64,000 bases of DNA from positions 1,280,001-1,344,000 of the forward strand of contig CAXXYH010000004.1 of assembly GCA_963677925.2 (NCBI GenBank). The letters run 5' to 3'. The translations under genes and the position numbers were made by a program. The notes below the pieces were generated by a model. That model saw nothing but the letters and a program-made list of their open reading frames with translations. It was not told where the DNA came from and did not search any database. How positions within the stretch are numbered: the stretch's first letter is position 1; every line of letters begins with the position of its first letter. Shown here piece by piece: positions 14,111-63,963 of the stretch. The stretch comes from Spirochaetia bacterium (GTDB lineage Bacteria > Spirochaetota > Spirochaetia > UBA9216).

Positions 14111-14154
14111 CTGAGACAATTTTAAAACCTGGAAAGTTTTGAAATTGTGATCTT
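14111..14154. repeat. REP-like palindromic element, copy 1, between convergent genes
   Basis: ACAATTTTAAAAC-CTGGAAA-GTTTTGAAATTGT hairpin; related inverted copy at 51267-51310. Confidence 0.7.
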
Positions 14155-16400: not shown

Positions 16401-16406
16401 ATTTAT

Positions 16407-17534: not shown

Positions 17535-17560
17535 TTTTCAGACTTCCTTTTAATATTTAT

Positions 17561-19585: not shown

Positions 19586-19616
19586 TTTCTCCTTTTGTAT
19601 CTTCAGCAAATATTTG

Positions 19617-20459: not shown

Positions 20460-20476
20460 TTAAGTACCTGTTCCCT

Positions 20477-21436
20477 TTAATTTTTCCGAATTCTTGGATC
20501 AACCCAGCCGTAAGCAAGATCCACCAGCAGGTTTGCCAGTACTACTACGAATGCAACAAGCAGAACGCAGCCCTGGACCATCGGGAAGTCCCGGTTCTGT
20601 ACGCTTGCAATAATCAGCCGGCCCATTCCCGGTATATTGAAGATTTGTTCAGCAAGCAGAGAGCCTCCGACAAGGCTGCGCACGATCATCCCCAGCAGGG
20701 TTATTACCGGAATCAGCGAGTTCCGGAGAATATGTTTAATTATGACGACATGCTCCAGCAAGCCTTTTGATACCGCCGTACGGACATAATCCTGAGCAAG
20801 GGTTTCAAGTACTGCTGATCTGGTCTGGCGTGTGATAATTGCCATTGGCCCCAGAGACATGAGTACAACCGGCAGGATTGCTTTTCGAAGACTATCCACC
20901 AAATCTACCGTAGGTGAAGTGTATCCCTGCGTCGGCAGGATACTTAGTTTCAAAGCAAAAAGATAAATACATAGAATACCTATCCAGAATTGCGGCATGG
21001 AAACACCGATATTTGCAAACACATTGACCAGCGAGTCGATTATCTTTCCCCTGTTCATTGCTGCAATGATTCCCAGTGTAATGCCGAAAAGAACGCCTCC
21101 TATAAGGGCTATCCCGTTAAGGTAGAGTGTAATGGGCAGCCGTTTGAGGAACATCCCGAGAACCGGTTCGTTGTAGTAGATGGATTCACCCAGATCTCCC
21201 CGAACTGCATCTTTTAGCCACAGGTAATACTGTGTCAGGAATGGTTTGTCCAGGTTCAGTTCTGCCCTCAGTGTCGCAACTTCTTCCGGGGTGGCATCTA
21301 TTCCCAGCATGGCAACTGCGGCATCGCCGGGGATGAAAGCAAGTACAGAGAAAGCGATAAATGAAACGAGGATAAGAACAATAACAGCCTGCGGTAATCT
21401 GTTAAATGCATATTTTAGCAACTTTGACTCCTTCAA
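20477..21436 (-). CDS. Opp/Dpp-family ABC permease (DppB-like)
   Basis: IPGDAA, QDYVRTAVSKG, DPRIR; TTG start. Confidence 0.9.
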   Translation of the reverse strand: MKESKLLKYAFNRLPQAVIVLILVSFIAFSVLAFIPGDAAVAMLGIDATPEEVATLRAELNLDKPFLTQYYLWLKDAVRGDLGESIYYNEPVLGMFLKRLPITLYLNGIALIGGVLFGITLGIIAAMNRGKIIDSLVNVFANIGVSMPQFWIGILCIYLFALKLSILPTQGYTSPTVDLVDSLRKAILPVVLMSLGPMAIITRQTRSAVLETLAQDYVRTAVSKGLLEHVVIIKHILRNSLIPVITLLGMIVRSLVGGSLLAEQIFNIPGMGRLIIASVQNRDFPMVQGCVLLVAFVVVLANLLVDLAYGWVDPRIRKN

Positions 21437-25084: not shown

Positions 25085-25107
25085 TTTTTAAGTTCTATCT
25101 ATTCTAT

Positions 25108-25154
25108 AAAAAGGCCTGAGTATCCATATTTATGAAACTCAGGCCTTCTTTTTT
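25108..25154. terminator. Bidirectional terminator between convergent hydrolase genes
   Basis: AAGGCCTGAGT...ACTCAGGCCTT flanked by A and T runs. Confidence 0.75.
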
Positions 25155-25179
25155 GGATCAGCTGGTTTTTCAGCAGGTT

Positions 25180-26700: not shown

Positions 26701-26889
26701 AGAATGGTCTCCTTTTTTTACTGTTAGTATGTCTATATAAAACTGACCGCGTTCCAAAAATGAACGTGGTTCGATAAGTAGTATAGGGTATGAAATTGTA
26801 TATGTCTACATAAAGTTGAGATATGAAATGGCAGTTATCTCAATTTGTAATTTTTGTCCAGAGTCCGGATAATGTAAACTTATTATTTC

Positions 26890-27939: not shown

Positions 27940-28884
27940 ATGCTATTATTTATTACTAAGCGGTTGCTCTGGCTTATTCCAATTCTAATAGGCGTTTCAA
28001 TTCTTATTTTTGTCATAACAAGTTTTACGCCCGGAGACCCGGTCCGTATCATGCTTGGAGCTATGGCCACAGAAGATCAGATGGATGCAGCCAGGGAAGA
28101 GTTGGGATTGAATGACCCTCTCATAATCCAGTACTTCAATTACATGAAAAGTCTGATTCTTGAGGGAGAACTGGGCATATCCTATGTTACTCATGAAAGT
28201 GTTATGACCGAAGTTCTGCACAGGCTTCCATATACACTCATCATTGCTCTGGTCAGTCTGGTTATCACAATAATCGCCGGTATACCTCTGGGGGTTCTTG
28301 CCGCTGTGAATCAGTTTACATGGAAAGACAGTGCGGCCATGTTTGTTTCAATGGTCATGGTTGCAATACCCGATTTCTGGCTGGCACTGAACTTTGTTCT
28401 TCTGTTCAGTCTTACATTGGGCTGGCTTCCGGCGGTAGGAGTAGGCAGCTGGCTGAATTACATCATGCCCTGTCTTGCTATATCAATGCATGGAATAGCA
28501 ACCATAACACGACAGACAAGGTCAAGTGTACTTGAAGTTATCCGTCAGGATTATATCACTACTGCACGGGCAAAAGGACTGAGCCGACGTGATGTAATCT
28601 ATAAGCATACACTCAAGAATGCACTTATCCCGATAATAATGACTATTGGCGGCGGAATAGCCATGCGGCTTGGCGGCGCTCTTATTGCCGAAACTATCTT
28701 CTCTATACCTGGAATGGGTGTTTACATGATGGGAGCTATCCGGGCAAGGGATTATCCGATAATCCGGGGATCTGCACTTGTTATAAGCGTCTGGTTCTGT
28801 CTTGTAATGCTGCTTGTCGACATTGTTTTTGCTCTGGTCGATCCTCGTATCAGGGTTCAATTCGTAAAAAAGGGGAATAAGTAA
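27940..28884 (+). CDS. Opp/Dpp-family ABC permease (DppB-like)
   Basis: TPGDPV, RQTRSSVLEVIRQDYITTARAKG, DPRIR. Confidence 0.93.
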   Translation: MLLFITKRLLWLIPILIGVSILIFVITSFTPGDPVRIMLGAMATEDQMDAAREELGLNDPLIIQYFNYMKSLILEGELGISYVTHESVMTEVLHRLPYTLIIALVSLVITIIAGIPLGVLAAVNQFTWKDSAAMFVSMVMVAIPDFWLALNFVLLFSLTLGWLPAVGVGSWLNYIMPCLAISMHGIATITRQTRSSVLEVIRQDYITTARAKGLSRRDVIYKHTLKNALIPIIMTIGGGIAMRLGGALIAETIFSIPGMGVYMMGAIRARDYPIIRGSALVISVWFCLVMLLVDIVFALVDPRIRVQFVKKGNK

Positions 28885-28890
28885 ACAACG

Positions 28891-29760
28891 ATGAAAATTA
28901 ATAATTCAAACTCCAAAGGTGAGAGTCAGTTTCATGAAACATTATATCGTCTTACCAGGAATAAATTAGCTGTTATCGGATTTGCCTATATTATCTTCAT
29001 GCTTCTGGTAGCTTTATTTGCTCCGGTCATAGCACCGTATGATTATGTTGAACAGGATTATGAGCATATTTTTGAAGCTCCAAGCAGCCAGCATCTACTG
29101 GGAACTGATAACCTTGGACGTGATGTATTAAGCCGGCTTATATGGGGTTCAAGGCAGTCATTGCAGATAGCCTTCCTCACAGTTTTTATTGCTGCAGCAA
29201 TAGGTATAGTTGTAGGTTCGATCGCCGGCTATTACGGCGGTCTTCCGGACAGTCTGTTGATGCGTTTTCTGGATATCTATCAATCGATACCGGTTATGAT
29301 TTTATCTATAGCCCTGGCAACAGCACTTGGCCCGGGAGTTCTTAATACAATTATTGCTGTCTCTATTACTATCAGCCCTCTTTTTGCAAGAATGATGCGT
29401 GCTTCAATCATGCGTGTAAGTAAAATGGAATATATAGAAGCTGCAGTAGCGATAAATGCAAAGAATCCCCGAATAATCTGGGATCACGCGCTTCCTAATG
29501 CTTTTTCTCCTATGATAGTCCTTTGTACTATGAGCTTCGGTCAGTCCATGCTGGTCGCGGCAACACTGAGCTTTATTGGTCTGGGCGCTCAGCCTCCTTC
29601 ACCGGAATGGGGAGCGATGCTCACTTCTGCCAGGGGATTTATTCGTGATTATCCATATCTCATCACCTCTCCCGGAGTCTGCATTTTTCTCGGCGTTTTA
29701 TCCTTTAACATGATGGGTGACGGGCTTCGCGATGCCCTTGACCCGCACCTGAAAAACTAG
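28891..29760 (+). CDS. Opp/Dpp-family ABC permease (DppC-like)
   Basis: HLLGTDNLGRD, EYIEAAVAI, GDGLRDALDP. Confidence 0.93.
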   Translation: MKINNSNSKGESQFHETLYRLTRNKLAVIGFAYIIFMLLVALFAPVIAPYDYVEQDYEHIFEAPSSQHLLGTDNLGRDVLSRLIWGSRQSLQIAFLTVFIAAAIGIVVGSIAGYYGGLPDSLLMRFLDIYQSIPVMILSIALATALGPGVLNTIIAVSITISPLFARMMRASIMRVSKMEYIEAAVAINAKNPRIIWDHALPNAFSPMIVLCTMSFGQSMLVAATLSFIGLGAQPPSPEWGAMLTSARGFIRDYPYLITSPGVCIFLGVLSFNMMGDGLRDALDPHLKN

Positions 29761-29772
29761 GGCGGCAGCAAT

Positions 29773-30753
29773 ATGAAAGAAACAACAAAGAATATACTGG
29801 ATATCAAAGATCTATATGTGCACTATACTGCATATAAAAATGTTATCAGGGCGGTAAACGGAGTAAGTCTTTCTCTGAAGCGGGGAAAGAGTCTGGGCCT
29901 TGTAGGTGAAACCGGAGCCGGTAAAACAACGATTGCAAAGGCTGTTATGGGTATTCTGCCTGACCGTCAGGCTCGTATCCCCGGCGGAGTTATCGAATTT
30001 GACGGTGAAGATCTGCTGAAATACACAGAAAAGAAAATGGAAAAAGTTCGGGGTAATAAAATCTCCATGGTTTTTCAGGATCCCATGACTGCATTAAATC
30101 CGATAGAGAAAGTTGGAGATCAGATTGCCGAGACTATTCGTAATCATAACAAAATATCCAAAACCGAGGCTGAGAAGCAGGCTATAGATATCCTCGAAAT
30201 GGTCGGAATTCCAGGCGACCGTTACAGCGAGTATCCGCACCAGTTTTCAGGCGGAATGAAACAGCGGGTTGTAATTGCAATAGCCCTGGCCTGTAAGCCG
30301 GAGCTCCTGATTGCGGATGAACCTACGACTGCCCTTGATGTCACTATCCAGGCCCAGGTTTTAAGGATGCTGGCCAAGCTGAAAAATGAGCTTCAGACTT
30401 CGGTTATAATGATAACCCACGATCTGGGGATAGTTGCAGAAATGTGCGACGATGTTGCAGTTGTCTATGCCGGTGAGATTGTTGAAATTGGACCTGTTGA
30501 AAGTATTTTCGATCATGCAAGCCATCCCTATACAATCGGACTTTTTAACTCACTTCCGGATTTGAAATCAAAAGAAGCCCGTTTAAAACCAATAAAGGGC
30601 TTAATGCCCGATCCTGCCAATTTACCTGAAGGCTGTAAATTTCACGACCGCTGTCCGAATGCAGATGAAGAGTGCAGAAAAAAATCTCCTAACACAATTG
30701 AATTGACGCCGGGACATTTTGTGATGTGCATGAAAGTGAAGGAGGAAAAATAG
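29773..30753 (+). CDS. Opp/Dpp-family ABC ATP-binding protein (DppD-like)
   Basis: [26 protein letters not shown] plus Cys tail. Confidence 0.93.
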   Translation: MKETTKNILDIKDLYVHYTAYKNVIRAVNGVSLSLKRGKSLGLVGETGAGKTTIAKAVMGILPDRQARIPGGVIEFDGEDLLKYTEKKMEKVRGNKISMVFQDPMTALNPIEKVGDQIAETIRNHNKISKTEAEKQAIDILEMVGIPGDRYSEYPHQFSGGMKQRVVIAIALACKPELLIADEPTTALDVTIQAQVLRMLAKLKNELQTSVIMITHDLGIVAEMCDDVAVVYAGEIVEIGPVESIFDHASHPYTIGLFNSLPDLKSKEARLKPIKGLMPDPANLPEGCKFHDRCPNADEECRKKSPNTIELTPGHFVMCMKVKEEK

Positions 30754-31710
30754 ATGTCGACCTTACTTGAGGTGCAGAACCTTAAAAAATATTTTAAGTT
30801 CAAACATGGATGGCTTCAGGCTGTTGATGGAATCAGTTTTAAACTGGAAAAGGGAAAAACTCTTGGAGTAGTAGGTGAGTCCGGATGCGGTAAGTCTACC
30901 CTCGGAAGAACAATTCTTCACCTGCTCAATAAAACTGAAGGAGAAATAATATTCGACGGTGAAAATATTTCCCAGCCCAGCGCGTCTAAGCTGAAGGAAT
31001 TCAGAGAGAATGCACAGATTATTTTTCAGGATCCGTATTCATCACTGGATCCCAGAAAAACAGTCAGCAAGATCATCATGGAGCCCCTGGCTCTGACAAA
31101 AAGAATGTCAAAGCCTGAGATGACCAAAAGGGTTGCTGAAATTATGGAAACGGTTGGACTTGCTTCAAGATTTGCAAATTCATATCCGCATGAATTGGAT
31201 GGAGGACGGCGTCAGAGGATTGGTGTTGCAAGAGCTCTTGCCCTTGATCCGAAGTTTATCGTATGCGATGAACCGGTCTCTGCTCTTGATGTTTCTGTGC
31301 AGGCTCAGATTCTGAATCTGCTCATGGACCTTCAGCAGGATCGCGGTCTCACCTACATTTTTGTTACACATGATCTCTCTGTTGTTAAACACATCTCAGA
31401 TGAAATTCTTGTTATGTACCTGGGAAAGATGATAGAGAAGGCGGAAACCGAAGAACTCTTTGAGAATCCGCTTCATCCTTATACCAAGGCTCTGTTGTCT
31501 GCAATCCTGGTTCCTGATGTTCACGCCAAAAAGGACCATATCATTCTGGAGGGTGAGATAAAGTCGCCAATTAATCTTGGTGATGAGTGCAGGTTTGCTC
31601 CCAGGTGCATTTATGCAAAAGAAGAATGTAAACAAGCTCAGAAGCTTGAAGAAATTAAGCCCGGACATTTTATTTCCTGCTGCAGAGCAAGGGAATTAAA
31701 TAATCTTTAA
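30754..31710 (+). CDS. Opp/Dpp-family ABC ATP-binding protein (DppF-like)
   Basis: [26 protein letters not shown]. Confidence 0.93.
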   Translation: MSTLLEVQNLKKYFKFKHGWLQAVDGISFKLEKGKTLGVVGESGCGKSTLGRTILHLLNKTEGEIIFDGENISQPSASKLKEFRENAQIIFQDPYSSLDPRKTVSKIIMEPLALTKRMSKPEMTKRVAEIMETVGLASRFANSYPHELDGGRRQRIGVARALALDPKFIVCDEPVSALDVSVQAQILNLLMDLQQDRGLTYIFVTHDLSVVKHISDEILVMYLGKMIEKAETEELFENPLHPYTKALLSAILVPDVHAKKDHIILEGEIKSPINLGDECRFAPRCIYAKEECKQAQKLEEIKPGHFISCCRARELNNL

Positions 31711-31753
31711 TTGTATTCTACAGGGTCTGAAGCCCTGAAAAAGGAGAAGATTT

Positions 31754-33280
31754 ATGAAAAGAAACGTGTTTATTGTTTTGCTGCTGATTTCTGCCGTAGC
31801 GCTTTTTGCAAGAGGTCAGAATGAAGCTTCCGGAGAAATGGAAGGTCAGGTTCAGGATACGCTGAATATTGCTATCAAGACTGACAGGGGTACTATGGCT
31901 CCTGTATGGGCTTCGCAGTATCAGGGTTACTGTGTTTTTGAGACACTTTATAAACTGAATGCTGAAACAAATGAGTTTATTCCATTGATTGCCGAATCAC
32001 TGGACTTTGTTGATGATGTTACCCTTGTGGCAAAAATTCGTGAAGGAATAACCGACAGCGCAGGTAATCCATTTACAGCAAGTGATGTTGTCTATAGTTA
32101 TAAATGGGGCCTTGGTGATTTTGTAACCGCCATGGGTATCTATGCAATAGATTTTGATAAAACCAGGGCTATTGATGATTACACTGTAGAAATAGTTTTA
32201 AAAGCACCGAATGTTTCGCAATGGTACCTTCTTGAGCAGCAGAGACTGTTTACCCAGGCTGCAATGGAAGCAAGTGAAAACGGAATGAAGGCCGATCCCG
32301 TAGGAACCGGACAGTATGTCCTTACCGAGTACATACAGGGATCAAGAGTTTCCTTCACACGTAATGAGAATTATTGGGGAACTCCTGCAGCGATTAAAAA
32401 TGTTAACTGGCTGATCATTCCGGAAACAAGTCAGAGAATGATGACTCTTGAATCCGGTGAAGTTGATTTTTCAGAAGATATTGCCGGTATAGATTATAAG
32501 CGAATGGAAAAAAATGACAAAATTGACGCTGATATTGTTCCCTCGTTTGCAAGTACCTGTATTTATTTTAACTGTTCTGAATATTCCATATGCAATGATC
32601 CTGCTGTCAGGCAGGCAGTTTCCTATGCGGTAAGTAAAGATGCAGTGAATAAGATTGTATACAGCGATCTCTTTGTTCCTTCAGTAATTCCCGGCTCAAG
32701 AGCTCTAATGGGAATTGATCTCAGCTGGAATGCAAAAGACGGCTATTATGATCTTGATCCTGCAAAAGCAAAGTCACTGCTTGCCAAGGCCGGTATAGCT
32801 GAAGGTACTGAGGTTGTGATTGGAATCCCGGGTGAAAATGCAATGATAGCAACTGCTGAAGTAATTCAGGGGGCACTAATCGGGTTAGGATTGGATGCGA
32901 AGATTCAGTCATATGAACCGGCAGTATGGAATGAGGTTCAGATAGATCCTCAGAGCGGTATAGATTTGGCAATTCACACTCCGGGATGCCCCGACGGATA
33001 TTTCGGAAATAAATTACAGGCGAATTTCAGACTGTCACAGACAATATTCTACGATAATGACGAACTGCTGGACATGATTGATGAATCACTAATGACTATG
33101 GATAAAGACGCTCAGCTCGTAATAAATAAAAAGCTGAATGATCTTGTTGTCAAAGATGTTCCCATTTTGAGTCTGGTAGACAACGGATACATATATGCAT
33201 GGGATTCAAATGTAAAGGGTGTTAAAAAGATGCATGCAGAAAGAGGACGTCAGTTAGATCTGTCTTATCTGTCATATTAA
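31754..33280 (+). CDS. Family 5 ABC substrate-binding protein
   Basis: Signal peptide ending LFARGQNE, IREGITDSAGNPFTASDV, PVGTGQY; AAGGAG RBS. Confidence 0.9.
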   Translation: MKRNVFIVLLLISAVALFARGQNEASGEMEGQVQDTLNIAIKTDRGTMAPVWASQYQGYCVFETLYKLNAETNEFIPLIAESLDFVDDVTLVAKIREGITDSAGNPFTASDVVYSYKWGLGDFVTAMGIYAIDFDKTRAIDDYTVEIVLKAPNVSQWYLLEQQRLFTQAAMEASENGMKADPVGTGQYVLTEYIQGSRVSFTRNENYWGTPAAIKNVNWLIIPETSQRMMTLESGEVDFSEDIAGIDYKRMEKNDKIDADIVPSFASTCIYFNCSEYSICNDPAVRQAVSYAVSKDAVNKIVYSDLFVPSVIPGSRALMGIDLSWNAKDGYYDLDPAKAKSLLAKAGIAEGTEVVIGIPGENAMIATAEVIQGALIGLGLDAKIQSYEPAVWNEVQIDPQSGIDLAIHTPGCPDGYFGNKLQANFRLSQTIFYDNDELLDMIDESLMTMDKDAQLVINKKLNDLVVKDVPILSLVDNGYIYAWDSNVKGVKKMHAERGRQLDLSYLSY

Positions 33281-33287
33281 CCAAGCT

Positions 33288-33315
33288 GAAGCCGGGAGTA
33301 TCTGCTCCCGGTTTT
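33288..33315 (+). terminator. Hairpin/terminator after SBP gene
   Basis: GAAGCCGGGAGTA-TC-TGCTCCCGGTTTT. Confidence 0.6.
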
Positions 33316-33331
33316 CATAAATGAGTAAATT

Positions 33332-33925
33332 ATGTTTTTAAATAGATACAAAAACTTTGATACATACTGGAAGAGAATAAGGGTTAAAGATGATTCATCG
33401 GAAGGCTCTCATTCCAAGTTTGTATATGTTGAAGATTACTATCATTACGATTTCGATGATGATGTTAAAAACAGAATAAAACGTATGCAGATTCAGCTTG
33501 CACTGTGTTTTGTAATTGTATTCGGGTTTTCTGTAACACGTCAGGTAAGTATTAATAGTATTCCATACATAGGCGGTTTCGCAATGATAGCGGCTGCTGC
33601 TGAATTGTTCTGTATAATCGGTATCTTTTCATTTATCAGGATTGAAGAAAATATGACGATTATGGATTTCAAGCGTGTCAGGGGGATGATTTACTATAGC
33701 GCTGCAGGTGTTGTTTTTGCACTGTCAGCTTTATTTGCTGGATATTTCTATTACCTTTTTACGCAGCATCCTGTAATAACTAAAATGGATTTTTTAGTTG
33801 CTGCAGGATATATTTTCGCAATCCTACTGGAAATACCGATACTTTTGTTCCAGAGCAGGAAGCATTATAAAGTTATTCTTAACAATAAAATGGATAAAAG
33901 GGAGATCGATATAAATGGTTACTAA
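33332..33925 (+). CDS. Hypothetical membrane protein (about 4 TM)
   Basis: Hydrophilic N-terminus then four hydrophobic segments; overlaps the start of the next gene. Confidence 0.7.
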   Translation: MFLNRYKNFDTYWKRIRVKDDSSEGSHSKFVYVEDYYHYDFDDDVKNRIKRMQIQLALCFVIVFGFSVTRQVSINSIPYIGGFAMIAAAAELFCIIGIFSFIRIEENMTIMDFKRVRGMIYYSAAGVVFALSALFAGYFYYLFTQHPVITKMDFLVAAGYIFAILLEIPILLFQSRKHYKVILNNKMDKREIDINGY

Positions 33926-35639
33926 GAAAGATGTCATGGTGGAAATGCCTGACGGTGTAAAACTTGCTACTGATATATTTTTACCTGAAGATGGAAAAGG
34001 TGCTTATCCTACCGTTCATGTAAGAACTCCGTATGTTAAAGATAATATTCTTAAACGTATTTTCGACGACATTCCGGCCAGCGAAAGACCTTTTGATATT
34101 CCCGGTTACACTGATAAGGGTTATGCGTTTGTTATTCAGGACTGCAGGGGAACCGGAAAATCTGAGGGGCTTTACAGACCCTGGCTTGGAGATGCTGAAG
34201 ACGGGTATGAACTTGTTGAGTGGATTGCAGCGCAGGATTGGAGTACTGGAAAAATTGGAGCTATCGGTTCTTCAAATCACGGTTCAGTACAGCTTTTAAC
34301 TGCTTCAATGCGGCCTCCGCATCTTGACTGTATTGTTCCCATGGGAACTTCCAATGCAATGCCATTTTTTGAAAATGGAATTTTAAATCTTGCCGGTTCC
34401 TCAATATGGTATATTCAGCAGGCTTTTAATTCCGCTCAGCGGGGCGGTATGAGTGAAGAGCGGTTCCAGCGTATGAAAGCAAAGCTCGATAAGATAATGA
34501 GTAATATGGATGAACAGTTTTACTGGCTGCCACTGAAGGATGTTCCATTTGCTAATGTTGAAGAAGTTGATATGGAGCTGTTCTTTCATGAGTTTCTTGA
34601 ATATCTTGATCAGCCGGCTCACTGGACAAGGATTCATAACCCTGCAGACATACTGAACATTGATATGCCTATCATGTTTATCGCTAACTGGTATGATCAT
34701 CTGGCAAGAAATGTTTTTGACATGTACAAAGTGTTAAAAAATCATGGAACTCCAAAAACACAGGAGAACCTTCATTTGTATATTGGTCCATGGCGAAAAT
34801 ATAATGGAATAGAAGGTACTGATGAGGGGCTCTGGGACAATCATAGAAGTCTTTTCGATGTGACCATCGGCTGGTTTGATTATTGGCTGAAAGGAGAATC
34901 AAACGGATTTGATAAATCCGAACCGGTTTTCCTCCATACTATGGGTGATGTCGCATGGCGGTTCGAGAAGAGCTGGCCGCTTCCGGATACTGATTTCACT
35001 AAATATTATTTTGATTCAGAAAATGGCGCCAACTCATTAAACGGTGATGGTGTTCTGACATTGAATAAGCCGATTGACGGATACGATGAATTTGATTATG
35101 ACCCCGCTAATCCGGTGGAAACCAGATCCGGGGTTGTAATCAACCCGAATGATTCGCTGAGGCAGAGTCAGAATGATGTTGAACAGCGTGAGGATGTGCT
35201 TGTTTACAGTTCAGAAGTACTTTCTAATCCGGTAGAGGTTACCGGGCCGGTTAGGGTTAAGCTCTGGGCTTCTACTAGTGCGGTTGATACTGATTTTACC
35301 GCAAAGCTTGTTGATGTCAAACCCGATGGAGAAACTTACAATCTGATCGAGGGAATAATCCGGGCCAGGTATAAAAACGGTGTGGACAGCGCTGAACTCC
35401 TTATTCCCGGTGCAGTTTATGAATATGAAATTAATTTGGGGGCTGTAGGAATTGTTTTTAAAGAGGGTCACCGTATCCGTGTTGAGATAGCAAGCAGCAA
35501 TTTTCCTAAACATGACAGGAATATGAACACAGGGCATAAGATCGGAGTTGATAAAGAAGGAATAATTGCAAGTCAGAAAATTTTTCATGATGATATGCAT
35601 CCTTCATACATAGAATTGCCGGTTATCCCGAAAAAATAA
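33915..35639 (+). CDS. CocE/NonD-family hydrolase (atypical catalytic residues)
   Basis: DGVKLATDI, RTPY, QDCRGTGKSEG, GSSNHG, NWYD, GPWRK, YDPANPV, DTDFTAKLVDV, SSNFP. Confidence 0.9.
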   Translation: MVTKKDVMVEMPDGVKLATDIFLPEDGKGAYPTVHVRTPYVKDNILKRIFDDIPASERPFDIPGYTDKGYAFVIQDCRGTGKSEGLYRPWLGDAEDGYELVEWIAAQDWSTGKIGAIGSSNHGSVQLLTASMRPPHLDCIVPMGTSNAMPFFENGILNLAGSSIWYIQQAFNSAQRGGMSEERFQRMKAKLDKIMSNMDEQFYWLPLKDVPFANVEEVDMELFFHEFLEYLDQPAHWTRIHNPADILNIDMPIMFIANWYDHLARNVFDMYKVLKNHGTPKTQENLHLYIGPWRKYNGIEGTDEGLWDNHRSLFDVTIGWFDYWLKGESNGFDKSEPVFLHTMGDVAWRFEKSWPLPDTDFTKYYFDSENGANSLNGDGVLTLNKPIDGYDEFDYDPANPVETRSGVVINPNDSLRQSQNDVEQREDVLVYSSEVLSNPVEVTGPVRVKLWASTSAVDTDFTAKLVDVKPDGETYNLIEGIIRARYKNGVDSAELLIPGAVYEYEINLGAVGIVFKEGHRIRVEIASSNFPKHDRNMNTGHKIGVDKEGIIASQKIFHDDMHPSYIELPVIPKK

Positions 35640-35652
35640 GGAATCTTTAATA

Positions 35653-37005
35653 ATGAAAAATATTACTGTACCTCTCAGGCTGGAGGTTCCTACACCATGT
35701 GCCGAAAGATGCGAGAATCTTATTGAGGTTTTTCAGAACGGTAATGAATACCGATGGACACAATATTTACCATCCTCTTTGAAATCGGGACTTCCCCTGG
35801 TTGTTGAAATTCATGGAGGCGGAGGGAACGGCGAGCGGCAGAGCAGAGTAACAGCCTGGGCTGAACTTGCAGAGAGGGAAAATTTTGTAGTCATTTATCC
35901 CTCGGCAAACAATATTGCCAGAGACAATAATATAAAGAACTGGAGATGCCAGCAGGATAATTTCCTAGATGATGCAGATTATCTTTATGACATAATTATG
36001 TTCATCTGTGGTAAGTATGAAATTGATAAAGAGAGAATTTACATATCCGGCATGTCCTTCGGTGATATGATGAGTTCCATTTTTGCTGCAAAATACGGGG
36101 GGATGCTTGCAGGATTATGCAGTTTTAACGGACCAACAGCACCTTGGGAATGGCATAAACTAAAACTGACAAGTGAACTCCCGGTTATTCAGATAAGGGG
36201 AGAGCTGGACCTCTCTCTTCCGTTTCCGGAACAGAATAAGCTCACAGAGGAAGAAGCTTTTAATCAGAAAAAAGAGTTTTATATTCTAAATCGTGAAAAC
36301 TGGATGGCTAAACTTGAGACCAGTAAAATTCCTCAGATTACTCTGAAAGAAAAAATTAACTTTGCATTATACGAAGGCAGAACATCAGATCTTCTATATG
36401 TTGAATGTAAATCAATGGGTCATGTTGAACCCGAATTCGGGATGGACCTTGCCTGGAGATACTGCTTTTCACGGTTCCGCAGAACAGCAGAGGGGATCGA
36501 ACGAATTAATGATTTGGCTCAAGTGAAGACCGGCAATGGTACTTTTGTTATTGCCTCAGGTGTGGATAAAATCTATTCCTCCAATGGAATAAGGAGAATC
36601 GCTTCAGCTCCGGTTATGGGAATACCTGAAGCTCTTCCAAAAGATAACTGGTGTATTGTAAGCAGAAATGATTATAAAAAAGAATCAGTACTGTATATAA
36701 AGCTTGAGCAGCTTGCAGAAATTATCTCTAGTGAATTAACAGATAACAGATTAAATTTCAATGATACCGTCTATACGTTTTATCCGGACAATTATCTTGT
36801 AGCCACAGATAAAGAACACTTTTCAATGAGCAGGCCGGCTTTGTTGATTGATAATGTTGTCTGGGTTCCGGCAGGTGATGCTCTTGAGGTGATGGGATTT
36901 AAATATTCTGAAAATGACGGTGTCCTGTACTGCTCTGATATGTGCAGCTATTTAACTCATGGTTTTGCTACTCTTCTAAGAAGAATGTTTGAGCAGACTC
37001 CATAA
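35653..37005 (+). CDS. PHB-depolymerase-like esterase with C-terminal stalk-like domains
   Basis: PLVVEIHGGGG, FVVIYP, IYISGMSFG, RGELD, MGH; C-terminal RPALLIDNVVWVP..DALEVMG. Confidence 0.8.
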   Translation: MKNITVPLRLEVPTPCAERCENLIEVFQNGNEYRWTQYLPSSLKSGLPLVVEIHGGGGNGERQSRVTAWAELAERENFVVIYPSANNIARDNNIKNWRCQQDNFLDDADYLYDIIMFICGKYEIDKERIYISGMSFGDMMSSIFAAKYGGMLAGLCSFNGPTAPWEWHKLKLTSELPVIQIRGELDLSLPFPEQNKLTEEEAFNQKKEFYILNRENWMAKLETSKIPQITLKEKINFALYEGRTSDLLYVECKSMGHVEPEFGMDLAWRYCFSRFRRTAEGIERINDLAQVKTGNGTFVIASGVDKIYSSNGIRRIASAPVMGIPEALPKDNWCIVSRNDYKKESVLYIKLEQLAEIISSELTDNRLNFNDTVYTFYPDNYLVATDKEHFSMSRPALLIDNVVWVPAGDALEVMGFKYSENDGVLYCSDMCSYLTHGFATLLRRMFEQTP

Positions 37006-37017
37006 CAAAGGCTTTTT

Positions 37018-38394
37018 ATGAACATTACCAGTAGACTTGTAAAGCACACGGCGAATTTACGTTATGAGGATCTATCTAAATCAGTAATAGAGGTGCAAAA
37101 GAAATCAATAGCCGATTCAATTGCCTGTATGATTGCCGCAACCGGAGCTGACCGGGGTATACATGCCGTCTATGATACCGCATTTGAGCTTGGAGGCCCC
37201 GGTAACTGCACCATGTTTTCAAGCATGCGCAAAACAACTCCAATGATGGCTGCTCTTGCAAACGGGGCTTTGTCGCACTTTCTTGATTTCGAAGATTCAC
37301 ATGAGCTTGCATTGGTACATCCCAATGAGGTTTCAATGCCTGTAATGGTGGCACTTGCTGAATATGAGGGGACCAGAAGTGGAAAAGATTTTTTAACTGC
37401 TCTTGTTGCAGCCAGTGACATATGCTGCCGGCTTGATTTTGGTATCAGCGAAGATGTCCTGAAATACGGGTGGAATATGCCGCCAATACACGGCGGTATG
37501 AGTGCTGTCATGGGAGCGTGCAATTTTCTCGGGTTGAGCGAAGAGCAGACTCTTGATGCAATTGCTATGAACATGAGTCAGGTGACATCGAGCGGAGAGG
37601 CTGCGTTCAGCTCTGAATCCGTAATAAGATCGATCCGTGACGGATTTGCTGCACAGGCTTCAGTTCTTTCTGTACTGACTGCCGCAAAGGGTATTTCAAC
37701 AAAATTTAATGATGCTTTTGGTGGAGACAACGGGTACTTTCACGCCTATGCTCGTGATGCGTATACACCGGATAAAGTTCTTGAAGGTCTTGGAGAGATT
37801 TTTCAGAGTGAGTATATCAGTTTTAAACCATGGCCCTGCTGCAGAGCTACTCATACATCAATAGAAGGTGTACAGAATATAATAGAAGAAAATGATATAA
37901 AAACTGAAGATATAGAGGAAATTCATCTTACTTTACATGAGGTAGGACGAATGGTCCTTGAGCCCAGAGAAATTAAATATAATCCGAAGACCGCGGCAAT
38001 GGCCAAATTCAGTATACCGTTTGCTCTTGGTACACTGATTAAATACGGAAAAGTCGACCTGCATAGTTTTTCTCAGGAAAGACTTGATGACCGCGAAATT
38101 TGTGAGCTGGGCAGTAAAGTTAGTTATAAAATTGATAATGAGCTTACAAAAGAAGAGAATAAGCTCACTGATATAATTATAAAAACAAAGAAGGGTCAGT
38201 TTAACAGGACTGTCAATCATCCTCTAGGCTGCAGAGAGAATCCGATGAGTGAACAGCATATGCTTGACAAGTTTAGAAGCTGCATGTCTTTCGCAAGAAA
38301 ACCCTATACTGATAAACAGGTCGATTCAATCTTTGATATGATAAACCACATTGATGAATTGGATAATGTTTGTGAGCTCTTTGAGCTTCTATAA
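37018..38394 (+). CDS. MmgE/PrpD-family protein
   Basis: ANGALSHFLDFEDSH, VHP, FKPWPCCRATH, AKFSIPF, PLGCRENPMS..MLDKF. Confidence 0.9.
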   Translation: MNITSRLVKHTANLRYEDLSKSVIEVQKKSIADSIACMIAATGADRGIHAVYDTAFELGGPGNCTMFSSMRKTTPMMAALANGALSHFLDFEDSHELALVHPNEVSMPVMVALAEYEGTRSGKDFLTALVAASDICCRLDFGISEDVLKYGWNMPPIHGGMSAVMGACNFLGLSEEQTLDAIAMNMSQVTSSGEAAFSSESVIRSIRDGFAAQASVLSVLTAAKGISTKFNDAFGGDNGYFHAYARDAYTPDKVLEGLGEIFQSEYISFKPWPCCRATHTSIEGVQNIIEENDIKTEDIEEIHLTLHEVGRMVLEPREIKYNPKTAAMAKFSIPFALGTLIKYGKVDLHSFSQERLDDREICELGSKVSYKIDNELTKEENKLTDIIIKTKKGQFNRTVNHPLGCRENPMSEQHMLDKFRSCMSFARKPYTDKQVDSIFDMINHIDELDNVCELFELL

Positions 38395-59460: not shown

Positions 59461-59503
59461 AAAAAAAAGGGGCTGACTAAGATTCGTTTTTGTCAGCCCC
59501 TTT
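59461..59503. terminator. Bidirectional terminator between ABC operon and glycyl radical enzyme gene
   Basis: AAAGGGGCTGAC...GTCAGCCCCTTT with A8 upstream. Confidence 0.82.
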
Positions 59504-59525
59504 CTATTTTACAGGTCAGGATTTG

Positions 59526-61922
59526 CTACATCGCCTGTTCTGTCCGGGCAATTATTTCATCCTGAACTCTGGAAGTTAAGGTTACATAATAGGTGCTGTA
59601 TCCGGCAACGCGGATTATCAGATCCCTGTACTTGTCTTTTTCCACCTTTGCCGCTTCCAGGGTTTCCCGGCTGACGACGTTCAGCTGGATCTGCTTTCCC
59701 CCGCTTATAAGATATGTTTTTACCATTGATGCAAGCTTCCTGAGATCTTCATCCGTTTTCAGGGTTCCCGGATGAAACTTCATGTTCAGAAGTGTTGCCA
59801 TGTATTCATCCTGCGGGATCTTCATGGCGCTCTGCAGTGCTGCAAGCGGCCCCTTGCGATCCATGCCCTGAACCGGAGAAATCGAGCCGTCCGCAAAGGT
59901 TTCTCCGTCTTTACGGCCGTCCGGTGTTGCGCTTGTCATCGCACCGCCGGGGGCATGAGCAGTTATTGATATTGCTGTGGGCAGTACCTTTGCATCAAAA
60001 ATTGAAGTGAACTCCTGAACTATTTCAGCAAAATCATGCCAGAACCTGCCTGCTATGTCATCTACAAAGGCGTCGTTGTTTCCGTACTTCGGCGCATCAA
60101 GGCAGAGTTTTCTTAAATCTTCGTAGCCTTCCCAGTTTGCCCGAAGGGCTTTAATCATGGTATCGGCGGGAATGCTTTTGTCTTCAAAGACGAGCTTTTT
60201 AACGGCGGCCAGGGAATCTACTGTGTTGGCCATACCTACTACATTGATCGCAGAACCGTTTTCAAAAGGCAGTCTTCGATCAAGGCCGTCACGTCCCGCC
60301 TTCATGGCATCATGGAGGAAGGCGCTTGTCACTACATCGGGGTAGAGTTCCCTCTGAACCATCAGAAGGATATTGTGTTCCTCGACGACCATTCCAATGA
60401 AATGTCTGCACTGTTCAAGAAATGCCCGGTAAAAATCTTCAAAGCTTTCAAATGATTCGAACTCACCTGTTTCAAGGCCCAGCAGTTCACCGCTTTTAGG
60501 TTCACGTCCATTATAAAGCGCAGTTTCAAGGTACATCGGTATTATGCTCATTCCGAAGGCCTGATTGCGGGATTTCCCGGGCAGCATGAGATCCATGCAT
60601 CCGGCAATGGCAAACTCCCGGGCTTCCTCTACCGGAATTCCCTGCTTTGTTATGAAGTTTATATAACTGTCTTCAGATATAAAAGCAGGCATTCCTGCAC
60701 CGGTTCTAACGACCTCCATTCCCTTGGCTATAAAATCTATGGGAGTGTCTTTTCCGACCCGCATGGTAAGTGTATGGTGAGGCGTCTGGCAGTCAAGCGC
60801 GGCTTCAAGCATGAGATATGATAACTCATTGGTGACATCCTTGCCGCTGCTGTCGCAGCCTCCTATAATAAAATTATGCCAGCGTGCCATTCCAGCCCAT
60901 TTTTCACGCTGGTTTTTACCGCCGCCCACAAAATTAAGCTGCATTATCTTTAATCTGAGGCATTCGAAAAGTTCAAGAGCCTCATCCCTCGTGATTCTGC
61001 CTTCTTCGAGATCAGCCTTGTACAGGGGCCAGAGGTACTGATCCATACGGCCGCCCGGCTGGGCCCCGTGTGCAACCATCATCCAGTAGAAGAAGAAAAA
61101 CTGAATACCTTCCCTGAATGTCCGTGCGGGATGCTCGGGGATATGCCGGCAGATTTCAGCGATCTGAATAAGTTCTTTTTTCCGCTTCTCATCATTTTCG
61201 TCACTGGCCATGGTTTCGGCCAGATCAGCGTAGCGTCCTGCCAGTCTGATTATCGCCGGAAGCGCAATCAGGGATGCCTTGTAAAAATTAGCCTTTGTTA
61301 CTGATTCTGCATCATAATAACGGAGTTCAAGAAGTTTCTGACGGGCCTCTTCTATAAAGGGGCCGATTCCTGTATGTATGATTCTTCCGTAGTCGGGACA
61401 GTTCAATGTTGTCGGGCCCATTCCCAGGCCCCAGCCCATTCCGGCTGCTCCCTGTCCGCGGCCCAGATCTTTCCTCTCCCAGGGCGGGCAGAGAAAACCG
61501 CGTTTGATAAAGGGCCACAACCGCTCATCATTGTAATGGAAGCCCTGGCGTTCATCCTGTGTCCGCCCCTTTCCGCTGTAATAATCATCCATGCTGCGGA
61601 TGGTTTTTCTGTCCTCTTCCGAGAGATATATCTGTCCTCCGGACAGCAGGTCGTCGAGATCATCATCCGGCCACCCCGGTCCGCCTGAGCCCATCTCCAT
61701 GCCCATCGGCTTGCTGGCAATGTTTCCGATTATAAGTTCATCCGGTTCGATGAAGATTGTCTTGTTGTCAAGATAATCGGCAGTTGCCTGCGCACGTCTG
61801 ACTATCTGCGGCCATCCGTCATTCTGCTTGAAAGAATTTAAAACTATTTCTGCTTTCTCTACACAAATTGGAAACTTATCTACTCTTAAAGCTTCCCTGA
61901 GCCTTTTTATTCTGTCATTCAT
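59526..61922 (-). CDS. Glycyl radical enzyme (PFL2/eliminase-like superfamily), unknown reaction
   Basis: DELIIG, GRMDQYL, PKYGNND, C-terminal glycyl motif IIRVAGYS, single-Cys loop IAGCMDL. Confidence 0.9.
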   Translation of the reverse strand: MNDRIKRLREALRVDKFPICVEKAEIVLNSFKQNDGWPQIVRRAQATADYLDNKTIFIEPDELIIGNIASKPMGMEMGSGGPGWPDDDLDDLLSGGQIYLSEEDRKTIRSMDDYYSGKGRTQDERQGFHYNDERLWPFIKRGFLCPPWERKDLGRGQGAAGMGWGLGMGPTTLNCPDYGRIIHTGIGPFIEEARQKLLELRYYDAESVTKANFYKASLIALPAIIRLAGRYADLAETMASDENDEKRKKELIQIAEICRHIPEHPARTFREGIQFFFFYWMMVAHGAQPGGRMDQYLWPLYKADLEEGRITRDEALELFECLRLKIMQLNFVGGGKNQREKWAGMARWHNFIIGGCDSSGKDVTNELSYLMLEAALDCQTPHHTLTMRVGKDTPIDFIAKGMEVVRTGAGMPAFISEDSYINFITKQGIPVEEAREFAIAGCMDLMLPGKSRNQAFGMSIIPMYLETALYNGREPKSGELLGLETGEFESFESFEDFYRAFLEQCRHFIGMVVEEHNILLMVQRELYPDVVTSAFLHDAMKAGRDGLDRRLPFENGSAINVVGMANTVDSLAAVKKLVFEDKSIPADTMIKALRANWEGYEDLRKLCLDAPKYGNNDAFVDDIAGRFWHDFAEIVQEFTSIFDAKVLPTAISITAHAPGGAMTSATPDGRKDGETFADGSISPVQGMDRKGPLAALQSAMKIPQDEYMATLLNMKFHPGTLKTDEDLRKLASMVKTYLISGGKQIQLNVVSRETLEAAKVEKDKYRDLIIRVAGYSTYYVTLTSRVQDEIIARTEQAM

Positions 61923-61999
61923 AAAAAACCTTCCTCCGGAGGCAATTATCGCTGTTCCTATTGTGGGAAGGTCAAGTTTTTATTTGCTGATGAGAGTTT

Positions 62000-62902
62000 T
62001 CATTCCTCTTCATCCGCGCAGGCGGCCTGGTAGGTCTTTCTGAATTCGCTCGGGGTGTACTGCGTGGAATTATGAAACACAGTACAGAAGTAGTTGCTCG
62101 ATGAAAAGCCCGCGTCAAGGGCAATCTGGGTTACAGGCAGATCGGTTTCCGCAAGCTGCTGCTTGGCCCATTCGAGCTTTTTGAAGGTTATATAGTTTGC
62201 CGGCGGAAAGCCGACAATTTCCTTGAATTTACTTTTAAACCTGGACAGGGAATAGCCGGATATAGCCGCAAGTTCTTTAAGCTGCAGAGGTTCCTGAAAG
62301 TCCCTGTCGATAATATCAACAGCCCGTTTAATGTTCTCATCTGTAATATTTTTCTTCTGCTTGCGCACCGGAATGAATTCCGGAACCTTGAAAAGGAAGG
62401 TGCACAGGTACTGGACTCCCAGCATCAGAGAGAGGGGGTCTTTATCGCTGATATTGCTGAAAGCCAGGCTCAGCAGCTTCTGATCTGTTGAAGGGAAGCG
62501 CAGATGCCGGTATTCCAGGCTGCTGAGAATATCATAAAGAGCAAGGGAGTAGGTTTCGTTGAGTCCAAGCAGCTGCTTTTTTCTGCTTGTATCAATCTGC
62601 AGTGCAAAAAACGAGCAGGGGCTTAAATCAATACTGCTTGTATAATGAGGTTCGAAGGGGAATGAGATAAACATCTCGTTTCCGGTGATAGTGTAATCCT
62701 TATTATCAACATGACAGCTTCGTTTTCCTTTTATCAGGCAGTGTATCTCAATGATATCGGAATGGATATGGAGCGGGGTAGGCAGTGATGCTGTGGGCAT
62801 ATTCCAGTGTGCGAAGTTCTTCAGTCCGGAAATGCCGTGCTGGTCAAGAGTTATAACCTTGTTATGCTTCTCCCAGCAGTACTCATCTATGATTTCCAGC
62901 AT
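62000..62902 (-). CDS. AraC-family transcriptional regulator (cupin + HTH)
   Basis: LHIH...EIH...PFEPH cupin; LAAISGYS.SRF, GFSSSNYF..VF; AGGAGG RBS before ATG 62902. Confidence 0.92.
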   Translation of the reverse strand: MLEIIDEYCWEKHNKVITLDQHGISGLKNFAHWNMPTASLPTPLHIHSDIIEIHCLIKGKRSCHVDNKDYTITGNEMFISFPFEPHYTSSIDLSPCSFFALQIDTSRKKQLLGLNETYSLALYDILSSLEYRHLRFPSTDQKLLSLAFSNISDKDPLSLMLGVQYLCTFLFKVPEFIPVRKQKKNITDENIKRAVDIIDRDFQEPLQLKELAAISGYSLSRFKSKFKEIVGFPPANYITFKKLEWAKQQLAETDLPVTQIALDAGFSSSNYFCTVFHNSTQYTPSEFRKTYQAACADEEE

Positions 62903-63036
62903 TAAAAATCCCCTCCTGATGTTTGGAAAAGTACTAAAGATAATCCTGAATGTCCAATTTAAGCACACACTATTATACTACAAATGAATCCGAACCACTA
63001 ATAAAAATATGGATTCATACAGGAAGGACCTTGAGG

Positions 63037-63963
63037 ATGAGCAATTCAATTTCAAATGGTGTATGGCCGGTAATGCTTACACCGTATACGGAAGATAACA
63101 AAATCGATTATGACGGTGTACTTGAGATGCTTGACTGGTATGCAGCAGGCAAGGTAACCGGCATATTTGCCGTATGTCAGTCTAGTGAGATGTTTAAATT
63201 AACAAAGGAAGAACGTCTGACACTGGCTTCATTTATCATTAAAAACAGGCCGAAGGGTCTGGGTATAGTTGTCTCCGGACATGTTGCTCCGACTATAGAT
63301 GAACAGATTGAAGAAGCCCAGGCTGTTGTTGATGCGGGCGCCGATTCCTATGTTTTTATCTCAAACCAGTTTGCAGCTGCCGATGAGGGCGATGATGCTG
63401 CCAAAAAGAATATTGAGGCGCTTATCAACGGAGTTAAGGCAGACAGCTTCGGAATTTATGAATGTCCGCAGCCTTATAAAAGACTCATGTCTCCGGAACT
63501 TCTTGCATGGTGTGCACAGACCGGTAAATTCAGTTTTCTTAAGGACACCTGCTGCAGCCTCCCCGAACTGAAGGCAAAACTCAACGCCGTTGACGGAACA
63601 CCTCTTAAAATATTCAACGCAAATGCAGCAACACTGCTTGAGAGTCTGAAGATGGGTGCTGCCGGATACAGCGGTATCATGGCTAACTTTCATGCCGACC
63701 TTTACAGCTGGCTCTGCGCCAATTTTGAGAAAGAACCCAAAAAAGCTGAAATTCTTCAGGACCTGCTTGGTTTTGCAAGCACTATTGAATGCCAGATGTA
63801 TCCGGTTAACGCCAAGTATCACATGGAACTTGACGGACTGAATATTAATCTGTTCAGCAGGGTTCAGGATTTCACACAGTTCACTCCGAACCGTCAGATG
63901 GAGATAGAGCAGATGAGAAGATCGATAAATCTGATGAGATCTCAGATTGGAATTTGGAATTAA
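63037..63963 (+). CDS. Dihydrodipicolinate synthase/N-acetylneuraminate lyase family aldolase or dehydratase
   Basis: GVWPVMLTPY, FAVCQSSE, GIYECP, Schiff-base Lys in FLKDTC. Confidence 0.85.
   Translation: MSNSISNGVWPVMLTPYTEDNKIDYDGVLEMLDWYAAGKVTGIFAVCQSSEMFKLTKEERLTLASFIIKNRPKGLGIVVSGHVAPTIDEQIEEAQAVVDAGADSYVFISNQFAAADEGDDAAKKNIEALINGVKADSFGIYECPQPYKRLMSPELLAWCAQTGKFSFLKDTCCSLPELKAKLNAVDGTPLKIFNANAATLLESLKMGAAGYSGIMANFHADLYSWLCANFEKEPKKAEILQDLLGFASTIECQMYPVNAKYHMELDGLNINLFSRVQDFTQFTPNRQMEIEQMRRSINLMRSQIGIWN

Follow-up and report, generated by a model that had tools for sequence, protein, structure and literature searches.

A glycyl radical enzyme of an uncharacterised Cys-X-Asp clade in a Spirochaetia genome, a candidate for new radical chemistry

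Results

The gene and its sequence signals

The DNA studied here, called the window below, is a stretch of 64,000 nucleotides from a Spirochaetia bacterium (assembly GCA_963677925.2, contig CAXXYH010000004.1, positions 1,280,001 to 1,344,000). On its minus strand lies a gene for an oxygen-sensitive glycyl radical enzyme (GRE), which an original prediction made from the sequence had singled out for its unusual cysteine loop, Gly-Cys-Met-Asp (GCMD). According to the list of open reading frames (ORFs) of the window, the gene is a single uninterrupted frame of 798 codons that starts with ATG. Its product matches the Pfam families PFL-like (PF02901, residues 1–658, 509.6 bits, E = 1.9e-152) and Gly_radical (PF01228, residues 680–780, 97.9 bits, E = 6e-28), and the strength of these matches far exceeds chance. 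The first methionine is invariant in an alignment of 32 homologous sequences, with which the N-terminus agrees. The features of the locus are the following.

59526..61922, minus strand: coding sequence of the GRE, 798 amino acids (ORF, Pfam PFL-like and Gly_radical, AlphaFold2, Foldseek)
59595..59612, minus strand: glycyl radical loop R771-V-A-G774-Y-S776 (translation; RVAGYS in 120/120 best homologues)
60591..60602, minus strand: Cys loop G441-C442-M443-D444 (translation; aligns to C433-V-E435 of glycerol dehydratase)
61407..61463, minus strand: Gly-rich clade-specific insertion, residues 154–172, GRGQGAAGMGWGLGMGPTT (covers the dehydratase His position)
60873..60908, minus strand: strand R339-E-K-W-A-G-M-A-R347-W348-H-N350 with clade-specific invariant residues (alignments)
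59946..59963, minus strand: strand T654-A-H656-A-P-G659 (aligns to the I644-G649 strand of glycerol dehydratase, just past Tyr640)
about 59461..59505, minus strand: intrinsic terminator after the stop codon, 14-bp stem followed by U8 (sequence and fold)
61923..61975, minus strand: upstream spacer with TTGACC (61970-61975) and GATAAT (61945-61950) at a spacing of 19 nt, and the ribosome-binding site GGAGGA (61932-61937)
62000..62968, minus strand: AraC-family regulator, on the same strand as the GRE gene and 77 bp upstream of it (Pfam HTH_18, HTH_AraC, AraC_binding)
62950..63963, plus strand: divergent gene of the DHDPS/class I pyruvate-aldolase family (Pfam DHDPS, E = 6.4e-13)

The motifs on which the original prediction was built are all present. 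Residues R771–S776 and G441–D444 convert to exactly the positions that had been given for an intact RVAGYS motif (59595-59612) and a GCMD loop with one cysteine (60591-60602), and the translation holds the other strands described as unusual (GPTTLNCPDY, AHGAQPGGR, MARWHNF and the Gly-rich GQGAAGMGWGLGMG) next to AGCMD and RVAGYS. The gene does lie between the AraC gene and a terminator, as had been proposed. The hairpin folds with −22.6 kcal/mol (z = −3.58), and none of 200 shuffled sequences was equally stable; a pattern scan had overlooked it, as the loop exceeds 8 nt. The TTGACC/GATAAT pair is a mere suggestion of a promoter, since a consensus scan of the locus gave 5 sites against a mean of 4.7 in shuffled sequences, which is no excess. 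The two short spacers flanking the gene contain no further ORF of at least 80 amino acids.

A clade with a Cys-X-Asp loop

By alignment, Cys442 is the predicted site of the thiyl radical, and Asp444 falls at the position occupied by Glu in the eliminases and isomerases of the family. This departure from the Cys-X-Glu (CXE) motif is not a single variant among GCVE homologues. We compared the protein with its best 120 homologues in a collection of 5.8 billion proteins, which are 55–71% identical to it and all retain RVAGYS. The loop is G-C-[LIMV]-D in 112 of them; in detail, GCLD was found in 97, GCID in 8, GCMD in 7 and GCLE in 4, and the loop of the remaining 4 was not matched by the pattern. 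For the analysis of the clade, we aligned 79 sequences, that is 72 GRE frames of at least 700 amino acids from 59 homologue loci and the seven GREs of this genome, leaving out ten shorter frames and six loci in which the ORF filter had kept an antisense frame. Among the 77 aligned clade members, 76 carry Cys-X-Asp (CXD) and one carries GCLE, and when the eight loci whose GRE had been omitted from the alignment were checked separately, all eight showed GCxD. At five loci (L062, L063, L065, L066 and L067) antisense open frames of 819–892 codons overlap the GRE genes, and the GREs themselves are intact and carry GCLD.

Of the seven GREs in this genome, five combine GC[L/M/V]D with the Gly-rich insertion and an A-G-M-A-[K/R]-W-[H/Y]-N strand, and the other two have GCVE and GCIE. 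The two CXE paralogues pass the cut-off of TIGR01774, the model of the PFL2/glycerol dehydratase subfamily, with 794.6 and 984.1 bits; the five CXD copies score 514–539 bits. When a FastTree phylogeny is rooted on the CXE pair, the window GRE nests inside the CXD clade, in a subclade with the homologues from loci L024, L025, L026, L031, L033 and L035, all of which share GCMD and an insertion that ends in G-M-G-P-T. Thus G-C-x-D is the rule of the clade and GCMD the mark of a subclade.

The clade is also set apart among representatives clustered at 50% identity, where the scores break after the first 17 matches (575–886 bits, followed by at most 494). Of these 17, 13 have CXD and all have Arg339. 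The best 150 representatives listed comprise 69 with CXE, 20 with CXD, 59 with another residue and 2 that are gapped there, so non-CXE loops (81 of 150, including the two gapped ones) are not rare among uncharacterised GREs. Judging by record titles, the CXD clade spans Bacillota, Chloroflexota, Acidobacteriota, Desulfobacterota, Planctomycetota and Spirochaetia.

As read from the alignments, the clade is defined by G-C-[L/I/M/V]-D, a Gly-rich insertion before the first barrel-strand position, Arg339, [K/R]347-Trp348-[H/N]-Asn350 and T-A-H-A/Q-P-G. The first four of these markers are all present in the window GRE and in at least 93% of the 77 members; TAHAPG occurs in 40 of the 79 aligned sequences and T[AS]HQPG in 16 more. 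The proposed uncharacterised subclass corresponds to a delimited clade, of which this genome holds an intact member.

Placement among known families

To place the window GRE, we used the cut-offs of hidden Markov models and identities to structures in the PDB instead of a joint tree. The protein does not pass the curated cut-off of any NCBIfam model and reaches at most half of each equivalog cut-off. It scores 538.7 bits with TIGR01774 (cut-off 678.2), followed by HpsG as the second-best match (493.3 vs 1000), CutC (462.9 vs 1050), HypD (448.9 vs 1100), indoleacetate decarboxylase (IAD; 444 vs 1100), the PflD-type model NF007437 (411.4 vs 1109), HpfG (387.5 vs 1000) and HPAD (367.5 vs 1150). 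With the PFL model TIGR01255 it reaches 124.5 vs 994.2 bits, and its loop has one Cys and no adjacent Cys-Cys pair. No PAD or AAD model appears among the NCBIfam matches.

Searched against solved structures, the sequence scores highest with CutC (463 bits), followed by glycerol dehydratase (407 bits) and propanediol dehydratase (406 bits). We modelled the protein with AlphaFold2 on the basis of 32 sequences; the model has a mean pLDDT of 85.4 and a pTM of 0.88, and is unreliable at residues 158–170 (pLDDT below 50), 343–346 and 381–383. Foldseek aligned it to solved GREs with TM-scores of 0.85–0.90 at 23–31% identity among the matches listed. Together with the scores below cut-off, these values indicate a GRE fold with no close characterised relative, and the tight clustering with a known enzyme that would have spoken against the prediction was not seen. 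Membership of the PFL-like superfamily, as far as it can be judged from the sequence, is borne out by the barrel and glycine radical domains, the Gly loop and the predicted catalytic Cys.

The known subfamilies fit less well. Identity to the alpha subunits of the X-succinate synthases BSS and MASS is 25–26%, and no small ORFs adjoin the gene. The IAD and HPAD scores lie below cut-off and, as stated above, the flanking spacers hold no ORF of at least 80 amino acids that could encode a small subunit like that of HPAD. A search of the PDB with the 25 residues around the Cys loop found no chain with GCxD. One entry labelled just 'Glycyl radical protein', 9RCO, was discarded as a candidate: according to the available part of PMC12756279, 9RCO–9RCR are propanediol dehydratase. 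All characterised GRE eliminases and isomerases have CXE, and no Asp variant is given in the available part of a June 2026 review, which also states that whole GRE clades are without validated function (PMC13450708). Our literature search, with subscription papers and supplements outside its reach, found no paper on the CXD clade or its loop, or linking GREs to the gene families that neighbour the clade, and the available parts of PMC12507026 and PMC11528403 hold nothing bearing on it.

An apparently remodelled active site

Residue correspondences were taken from HMMER alignments to 1R8W and 5I2A, with numbers counted along the alignment, and are thus based on sequence and not on three-dimensional superposition. 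In the diol dehydratases, Ser282, Tyr339, Asp447 and Tyr640 (glycerol dehydratase numbering) bind the substrate or act on the leaving group. Cys433 of glycerol dehydratase corresponds to Cys442 of the window GRE, Glu435 to Asp444, Asp447 to Phe456, Tyr339 to Trp348, His281-Ser282 to His285-Gly286 and Tyr640 to Ala650. His166 of propanediol dehydratase, the equivalent of His164 in glycerol dehydratase, aligns at about Pro170 within the Gly-rich insertion, and this correspondence is uncertain. According to the available text of PMC13450708, Glu435 is the base and His164 the proton donor in glycerol dehydratase, and the CXE Glu of eliminases is hydrogen-bonded to the substrate.

In place of these residues the clade has its own. 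Arg339, Trp348 and Glu76 are each found in 77 of the 77 members and Asp444 in 76, and neither CXE paralogue of the genome has any of them. Lys341, Ala346, Pro146-Pro147-Trp148, Arg323, Arg549 and Glu514 are likewise conserved in at least 93% of members and missing from the CXE paralogues. The Gly-rich insertion, in which G156, G158, A160, G163, G165 and G167 reach the same level of conservation, is a gap in both of them. By these alignments, the substrate-handling residues of the dehydratases are not kept, and a basic, Trp-bearing strand appears to be fixed instead.

These data bear on a rival explanation, namely that the protein is an ordinary 1,2-eliminase of the diol, glycerol or choline type in which Glu has drifted conservatively to Asp. 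Its best sequence and fold matches do belong to such enzymes (CutC, glycerol dehydratase with a TM-score of 0.90, and propanediol dehydratase). We nevertheless regard this explanation as extremely unlikely: other residues occupy all five further dehydratase positions examined, with the His position falling in the clade-specific insertion, and the score remains below the TIGR01774 cut-off that both CXE paralogues pass. Moreover, CXD is conserved across phyla and not sporadic, no microcompartment shell genes lie nearby, and there is no aldehyde or alcohol dehydrogenase among the annotated flanking genes.

Activases of the genome

The absence of an adjacent radical-SAM activase, noted in the original prediction, was confirmed: the genome has 27 matches to the activase model TIGR02494, and none of them is inside the window. 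The claim that neither a small subunit nor a microcompartment gene adjoins the GRE gene holds as well, given the empty spacers and the location of the only shell genes of the genome, at C3:1086457-1088784 on contig C3. These comprise four PF00936 matches in three frames, and no GRE lies near them.

A lack of any cognate activase in the genome would have counted against the prediction, and this is not what we found. Two of the 27 matches pass the cut-off of 174.35 bits (360.2 and 322.7 bits), both on contig C3. One, at C3:709331-710200, is located directly upstream of a clade paralogue (C3:710229) and is of the type found beside clade GREs: compared with 28 activases that adjoin clade GREs elsewhere, it shows a median identity of 50.7% and at best 54%. 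The other, at C3:1773658-1774533, adjoins the GCIE enzyme and shows a median identity of 36.6% to the same 28 activases. With seven GREs sharing two activases, activation in trans must be a regular occurrence here; by coordinates, four other GREs of the genome also have no activase beside them. For the window GRE it is plausible, since C3:709331-710200 adjoins a clade paralogue and resembles clade-adjacent activases elsewhere. Known cross-activation tracks the similarity of the Gly loop, as described in the available part of PMC13450708; the loops of the window GRE (RVAGYST) and of the paralogue at C3:710229 (RVAGYSA) differ at 1 of 7 positions. At the homologue loci, an activase was found within the fetched flanks in 27 of 59 cases, and in 21 of the 34 loci of at least 15 kb.

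A broken orthologue in a sister species

Among 30 relatives searched, a genome of the same genus (G001) has an orthologue at C9:321440-323750 that is 94–95% identical, is split in two and contains one TGA and one TAG stop. In the matching public locus (L034:8001-10317), an 80-bp deletion takes out the FFFYWMMVAHGAQPGG strand and shifts the frame. The ratio of nonsynonymous to synonymous substitution rates (dN/dS) between the two copies is 0.11 over 263 codons and 0.065 over 506 codons. Taken with the broken sister copy, these values indicate that purifying selection acted through most of the divergence and that the sister lineage lost the gene recently.

The pseudogene raises the question of whether the window copy is itself a decaying or silent paralogue, intact by chance and no more activated or used. 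The damage to the sister gene alone, whose neighbours all keep the same lengths as in the window, and the missing adjacent activase would both agree with this. We consider it very unlikely, in view of the full-length frame with all radical motifs, the ribosome-binding site, the terminator and the low dN/dS. A missing adjacent activase is moreover normal in this genome, as the four other GREs without one attest.

Gene neighbourhoods and possible substrates

Neighbouring genes were counted at the 59 homologue loci. Besides the activases, the most frequent companion is a second GRE (frames of at least 500 amino acids; 22 loci), followed by MmgE/PrpD (14) and PGA_cap (14), MatC (12) and Opp-type ABC transporters (12), PucR-type regulators (10) and TRAP transporters (9). 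CoA-transferases and acyl-CoA ligases were each found at 6 loci, a 2-hydroxyacyl-CoA dehydratase component at 5, an acyl-CoA dehydrogenase at 4, and an electron-transfer flavoprotein (ETF) and TctA at 3 each. An organic-anion carrier of any kind (MatC/CitMHS, TRAP or TctA) is present at 24. NCBIfam named no TRAP, PrpD or PGA_cap neighbour at equivalog level. The combination of organic-anion carriers, MmgE/PrpD, PGA_cap and CoA enzymes hints at carboxylate substrates; MmgE/PrpD proteins include aconitate decarboxylase, according to the available text of PMC13495696. We infer that the substrate is probably anionic, a small organic acid bearing carboxylate groups.

Clade GREs often come two in tandem, one of subtype A (MARW[H/N]N and TAHAPG) and one of subtype B (MAKWHN, and T[S/A]HQPG or SAQWPG). 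Such pairs were seen at L024, L026–L029, L036, L037, L040, L043, L044, L046, L049, L058, L059, L068 and others, often served by one nearby activase; L068 has four GREs in a row.

Carboxylate substrates would also suit a radical decarboxylase, which is the main alternative to an eliminase or isomerase. In this case the thiyl radical would oxidise an aliphatic di- or tricarboxylate or abstract from it, CO2 would be lost as in the arylacetate decarboxylases, and the resulting monocarboxylate would enter CoA-dependent metabolism. The frequent anion carriers and MmgE/PrpD neighbours agree with such a reaction, and so does a run of genes at L027–L029, where GRE, MatC, GRE, activase, FadX-like CoA-transferase, acyl-CoA ligase, acryloyl-CoA-reductase-like dehydrogenase and ETF follow each other on one strand behind a divergent PucR gene. 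The acyl-CoA dehydrogenase in this run is most like acryloyl-CoA reductase (419 bits vs a cut-off of 640). In addition, the best solved match of the Cys-loop region is the arylacetate decarboxylase 7E7L, and the IAD model is among the higher NCBIfam matches. On the other side, the four GRE decarboxylases characterised so far all act on arylacetates (PMC13450708, available part) and seem to rely on stabilised benzylic radicals. All decarboxylase equivalogs are far below cut-off, AAD is 30% and HPAD 23% identical to the window GRE, and no CoA enzyme adjoins the gene in this genome. On this evidence a decarboxylase appears unlikely, and we favour elimination or isomerisation of a substituted carboxylic acid over decarboxylation, though not strongly.

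Other neighbours bring to mind a lyase or eliminase for a substrate derived from peptides or amino acids. Such a substrate would be taken up by an Opp/Dpp-type ABC transporter, and the PGA_cap and MmgE/PrpD proteins would act as epimerases supplying the correct stereoisomer. In the Anaerolineae loci L051, L054 and L055 the Opp-type ABC genes are co-directional with the GRE gene; in Dehalococcoidia, a Peptidase_S15 gene comes after GRE and activase at three loci and after just the GRE at one more; and a peptide-type ABC operon converges on the window gene. The PGA_cap neighbour of one paralogue resembles MslH, the epimerase of the C-terminal Trp of a lasso peptide, with a score (97 vs a cut-off of 700 bits) that is far below the threshold. 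Most loci are without these genes, and we judge a peptide-derived substrate to be quite unlikely.

The neighbourhood in this genome

The convergent ABC operon is encoded on the opposite strand and has its own C69 peptidase, so its link to the GRE may be accidental. Upstream, the AraC gene stands in the same arrangement with the GRE gene in the sister-species locus L034. Past the end of the window, the divergent DHDPS-like gene is followed by TRAP genes DctP/Q/M and a protein of 1025 amino acids with a weak GH106 match (locus L021). Judging by this arrangement, the AraC regulator probably controls the GRE gene together with the divergent DHDPS-like/TRAP operon. The connection between that operon and the GRE is a candidate link, and the DHDPS-like protein names no substrate, because its solved relatives are all distant.

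The four other clade paralogues of the genome adjoin, respectively, MerR, an activase and MatC/CitMHS; MatC/CitMHS; TctBAC and MerR; and PucR, TctBAC, MmgE/PrpD and PGA_cap. The last of these sets belongs to a second CXD GRE about 17 kb past the window gene (G000:C4:1359312-1361720, L021:16309-18720), which has GCVD and is 43% identical to the window GRE. It follows a divergent PucR-type gene and TctB/TctA/TctC, MmgE/PrpD and PGA_cap genes on its own strand, a neighbour set that recurs in many other phyla. Members of the GCMD subclade are mostly found beside PucR regulators and MatC carriers and not beside AraC, which argues that the local context of the window GRE is lineage-specific.

Elsewhere in the window, two Opp/Dpp-type ABC operons without a GRE (14154-21436 and 27940-38394) carry families that flank CXD GREs in other genomes: the first has a PGA_cap gene (16407-17534) beside GH3, and the second has Peptidase_S15 (33915-35639), a PHB-esterase-like gene (35653-37005) and MmgE/PrpD (37018-38394). 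Esterase-type genes, for BD-FAE, beta-lactamase-like and carboxylesterase proteins, are concentrated among ABC transporters at 1-1718 and 23540-26757, which suggests uptake and de-esterification of plant-derived conjugates. Two family-less proteins of 197 amino acids, encoded at 33332-33925 of the window and at L021:7018-7611, were compared and are not related to each other.

Discussion

In our view, the window probably encodes a functional GRE of a large uncharacterised CXD clade, one that would most likely catalyse a 1,2-elimination or isomerisation of a hydroxy- or amino-substituted carboxylic acid to an oxo acid. The activase encoded at C3:709331-710200 would install the radical on Gly774 in trans, clade-specific Arg and Lys residues would hold the substrate, and Asp444 might fill the hydrogen-bonding or general-base role of the Glu in eliminases and isomerases. 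The 'new GRE chemistry' of the original prediction remains a candidate.

Several observations weigh against this interpretation. Of the 17 representative clusters nearest to the window GRE, four have P, E, Y or G at the Asp position, so Asp is perhaps no universal catalytic residue. No activase adjoins the gene, and its activation in trans is presumed. The pseudogene in the sister species means that the function is dispensable at least there. Carriers for organic anions are found at just 24 of the 59 homologue loci, and the surroundings of the window gene (AraC, DHDPS-like protein, TRAP and peptide-type ABC transporters) are unlike those of its closest homologues (PucR and MatC), so gene context transfers poorly to it. 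Finally, the residue mapping was derived from sequence alignment and from a model whose confidence is low at residues 158–170 and 343–346.

A broader proposal can be made for the clade as a whole, and we regard it as possible rather than probable. CXD enzymes may form a new functional class of GREs acting on aliphatic polycarboxylic or hydroxy-carboxylic acids, by radical dehydration to 2-oxo acids or by decarboxylation; they would often work as tandem A/B pairs with one activase, fed by epimerases or isomerases of the MmgE/PrpD and PGA_cap types, and the window copy would have been recruited, specifically in this lineage, to an AraC-controlled acid-uptake locus with an aldolase. To our knowledge, other anaerobes perform such dehydrations or decarboxylations only by CoA-thioester or Fe-S chemistry.

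It is worth stressing that the clade has clear limits and extends over several phyla, with an active site that by alignment is remodelled and a recurring gene neighbourhood. Its reaction, once assigned, would be a new reaction type or at least a new substrate class for anaerobic radical enzymology, and would account for several genes annotated as 'pyruvate formate-lyase family' in genomes from gut and sediment. With five CXD paralogues and one activase of the clade type, the organism is also convenient for studying how one activase serves many enzymes.

Comparison with known systems

Glycerol dehydratase of Clostridium butyricum (1R8W/1R9D) and propanediol dehydratase (5I2A/5I2G, 9RCO–9RCR) share with the window GRE the ten-stranded barrel (TM-score 0.89–0.90), the RVAGYS Gly loop, the position of the catalytic Cys and the need for a radical-SAM activase. 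They are 29–31% identical to it and have CXE where it has CXD, and unlike these systems, the window gene has no adjoining activase or microcompartment genes. CutC (9F3W, 5A0U, 5FAU) is the best full-length match among solved structures, with a TM-score of 0.90 at 28–30% identity; its loop is GCVE, and no cut gene cluster is found at the window locus.

The arylacetate decarboxylases (AAD 7E7L, IAD, HPAD and PAD), at 23–30% identity, also act on carboxylates, but on aromatic ones, and differ in that no small subunit gene is present at the window locus. AAD 7E7L is the best match for the 101-residue Cys-loop region of the window GRE. The AAD loop is GCVL, without the Glu of CXE, and that of PhdB is GCVQ.

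The isethionate sulfite-lyase IslA/IseG and the DHPS enzymes HpsG/HpfG have GCIE loops and are 28% identical to the window GRE. Their small anionic substrates are anchored by two Arg and one Gln (PMC13450708, available part); Arg339 and Lys341, conserved in the CXD clade, are located on another strand than these anchors. No sulfite reductase context was noticed at the window locus.

The GRE isomerases YbiW, PflD and HplG have the same fold as the window GRE (TM-score 0.88–0.90) at 27–29% identity. As described in the available part of PMC13450708, they keep CXE and convert hydroxylated substrates into keto products, which are afterwards cleaved by aldolases. A keto product passed on to an aldolase would be a possible analogy to the window GRE and its DHDPS-like neighbour.

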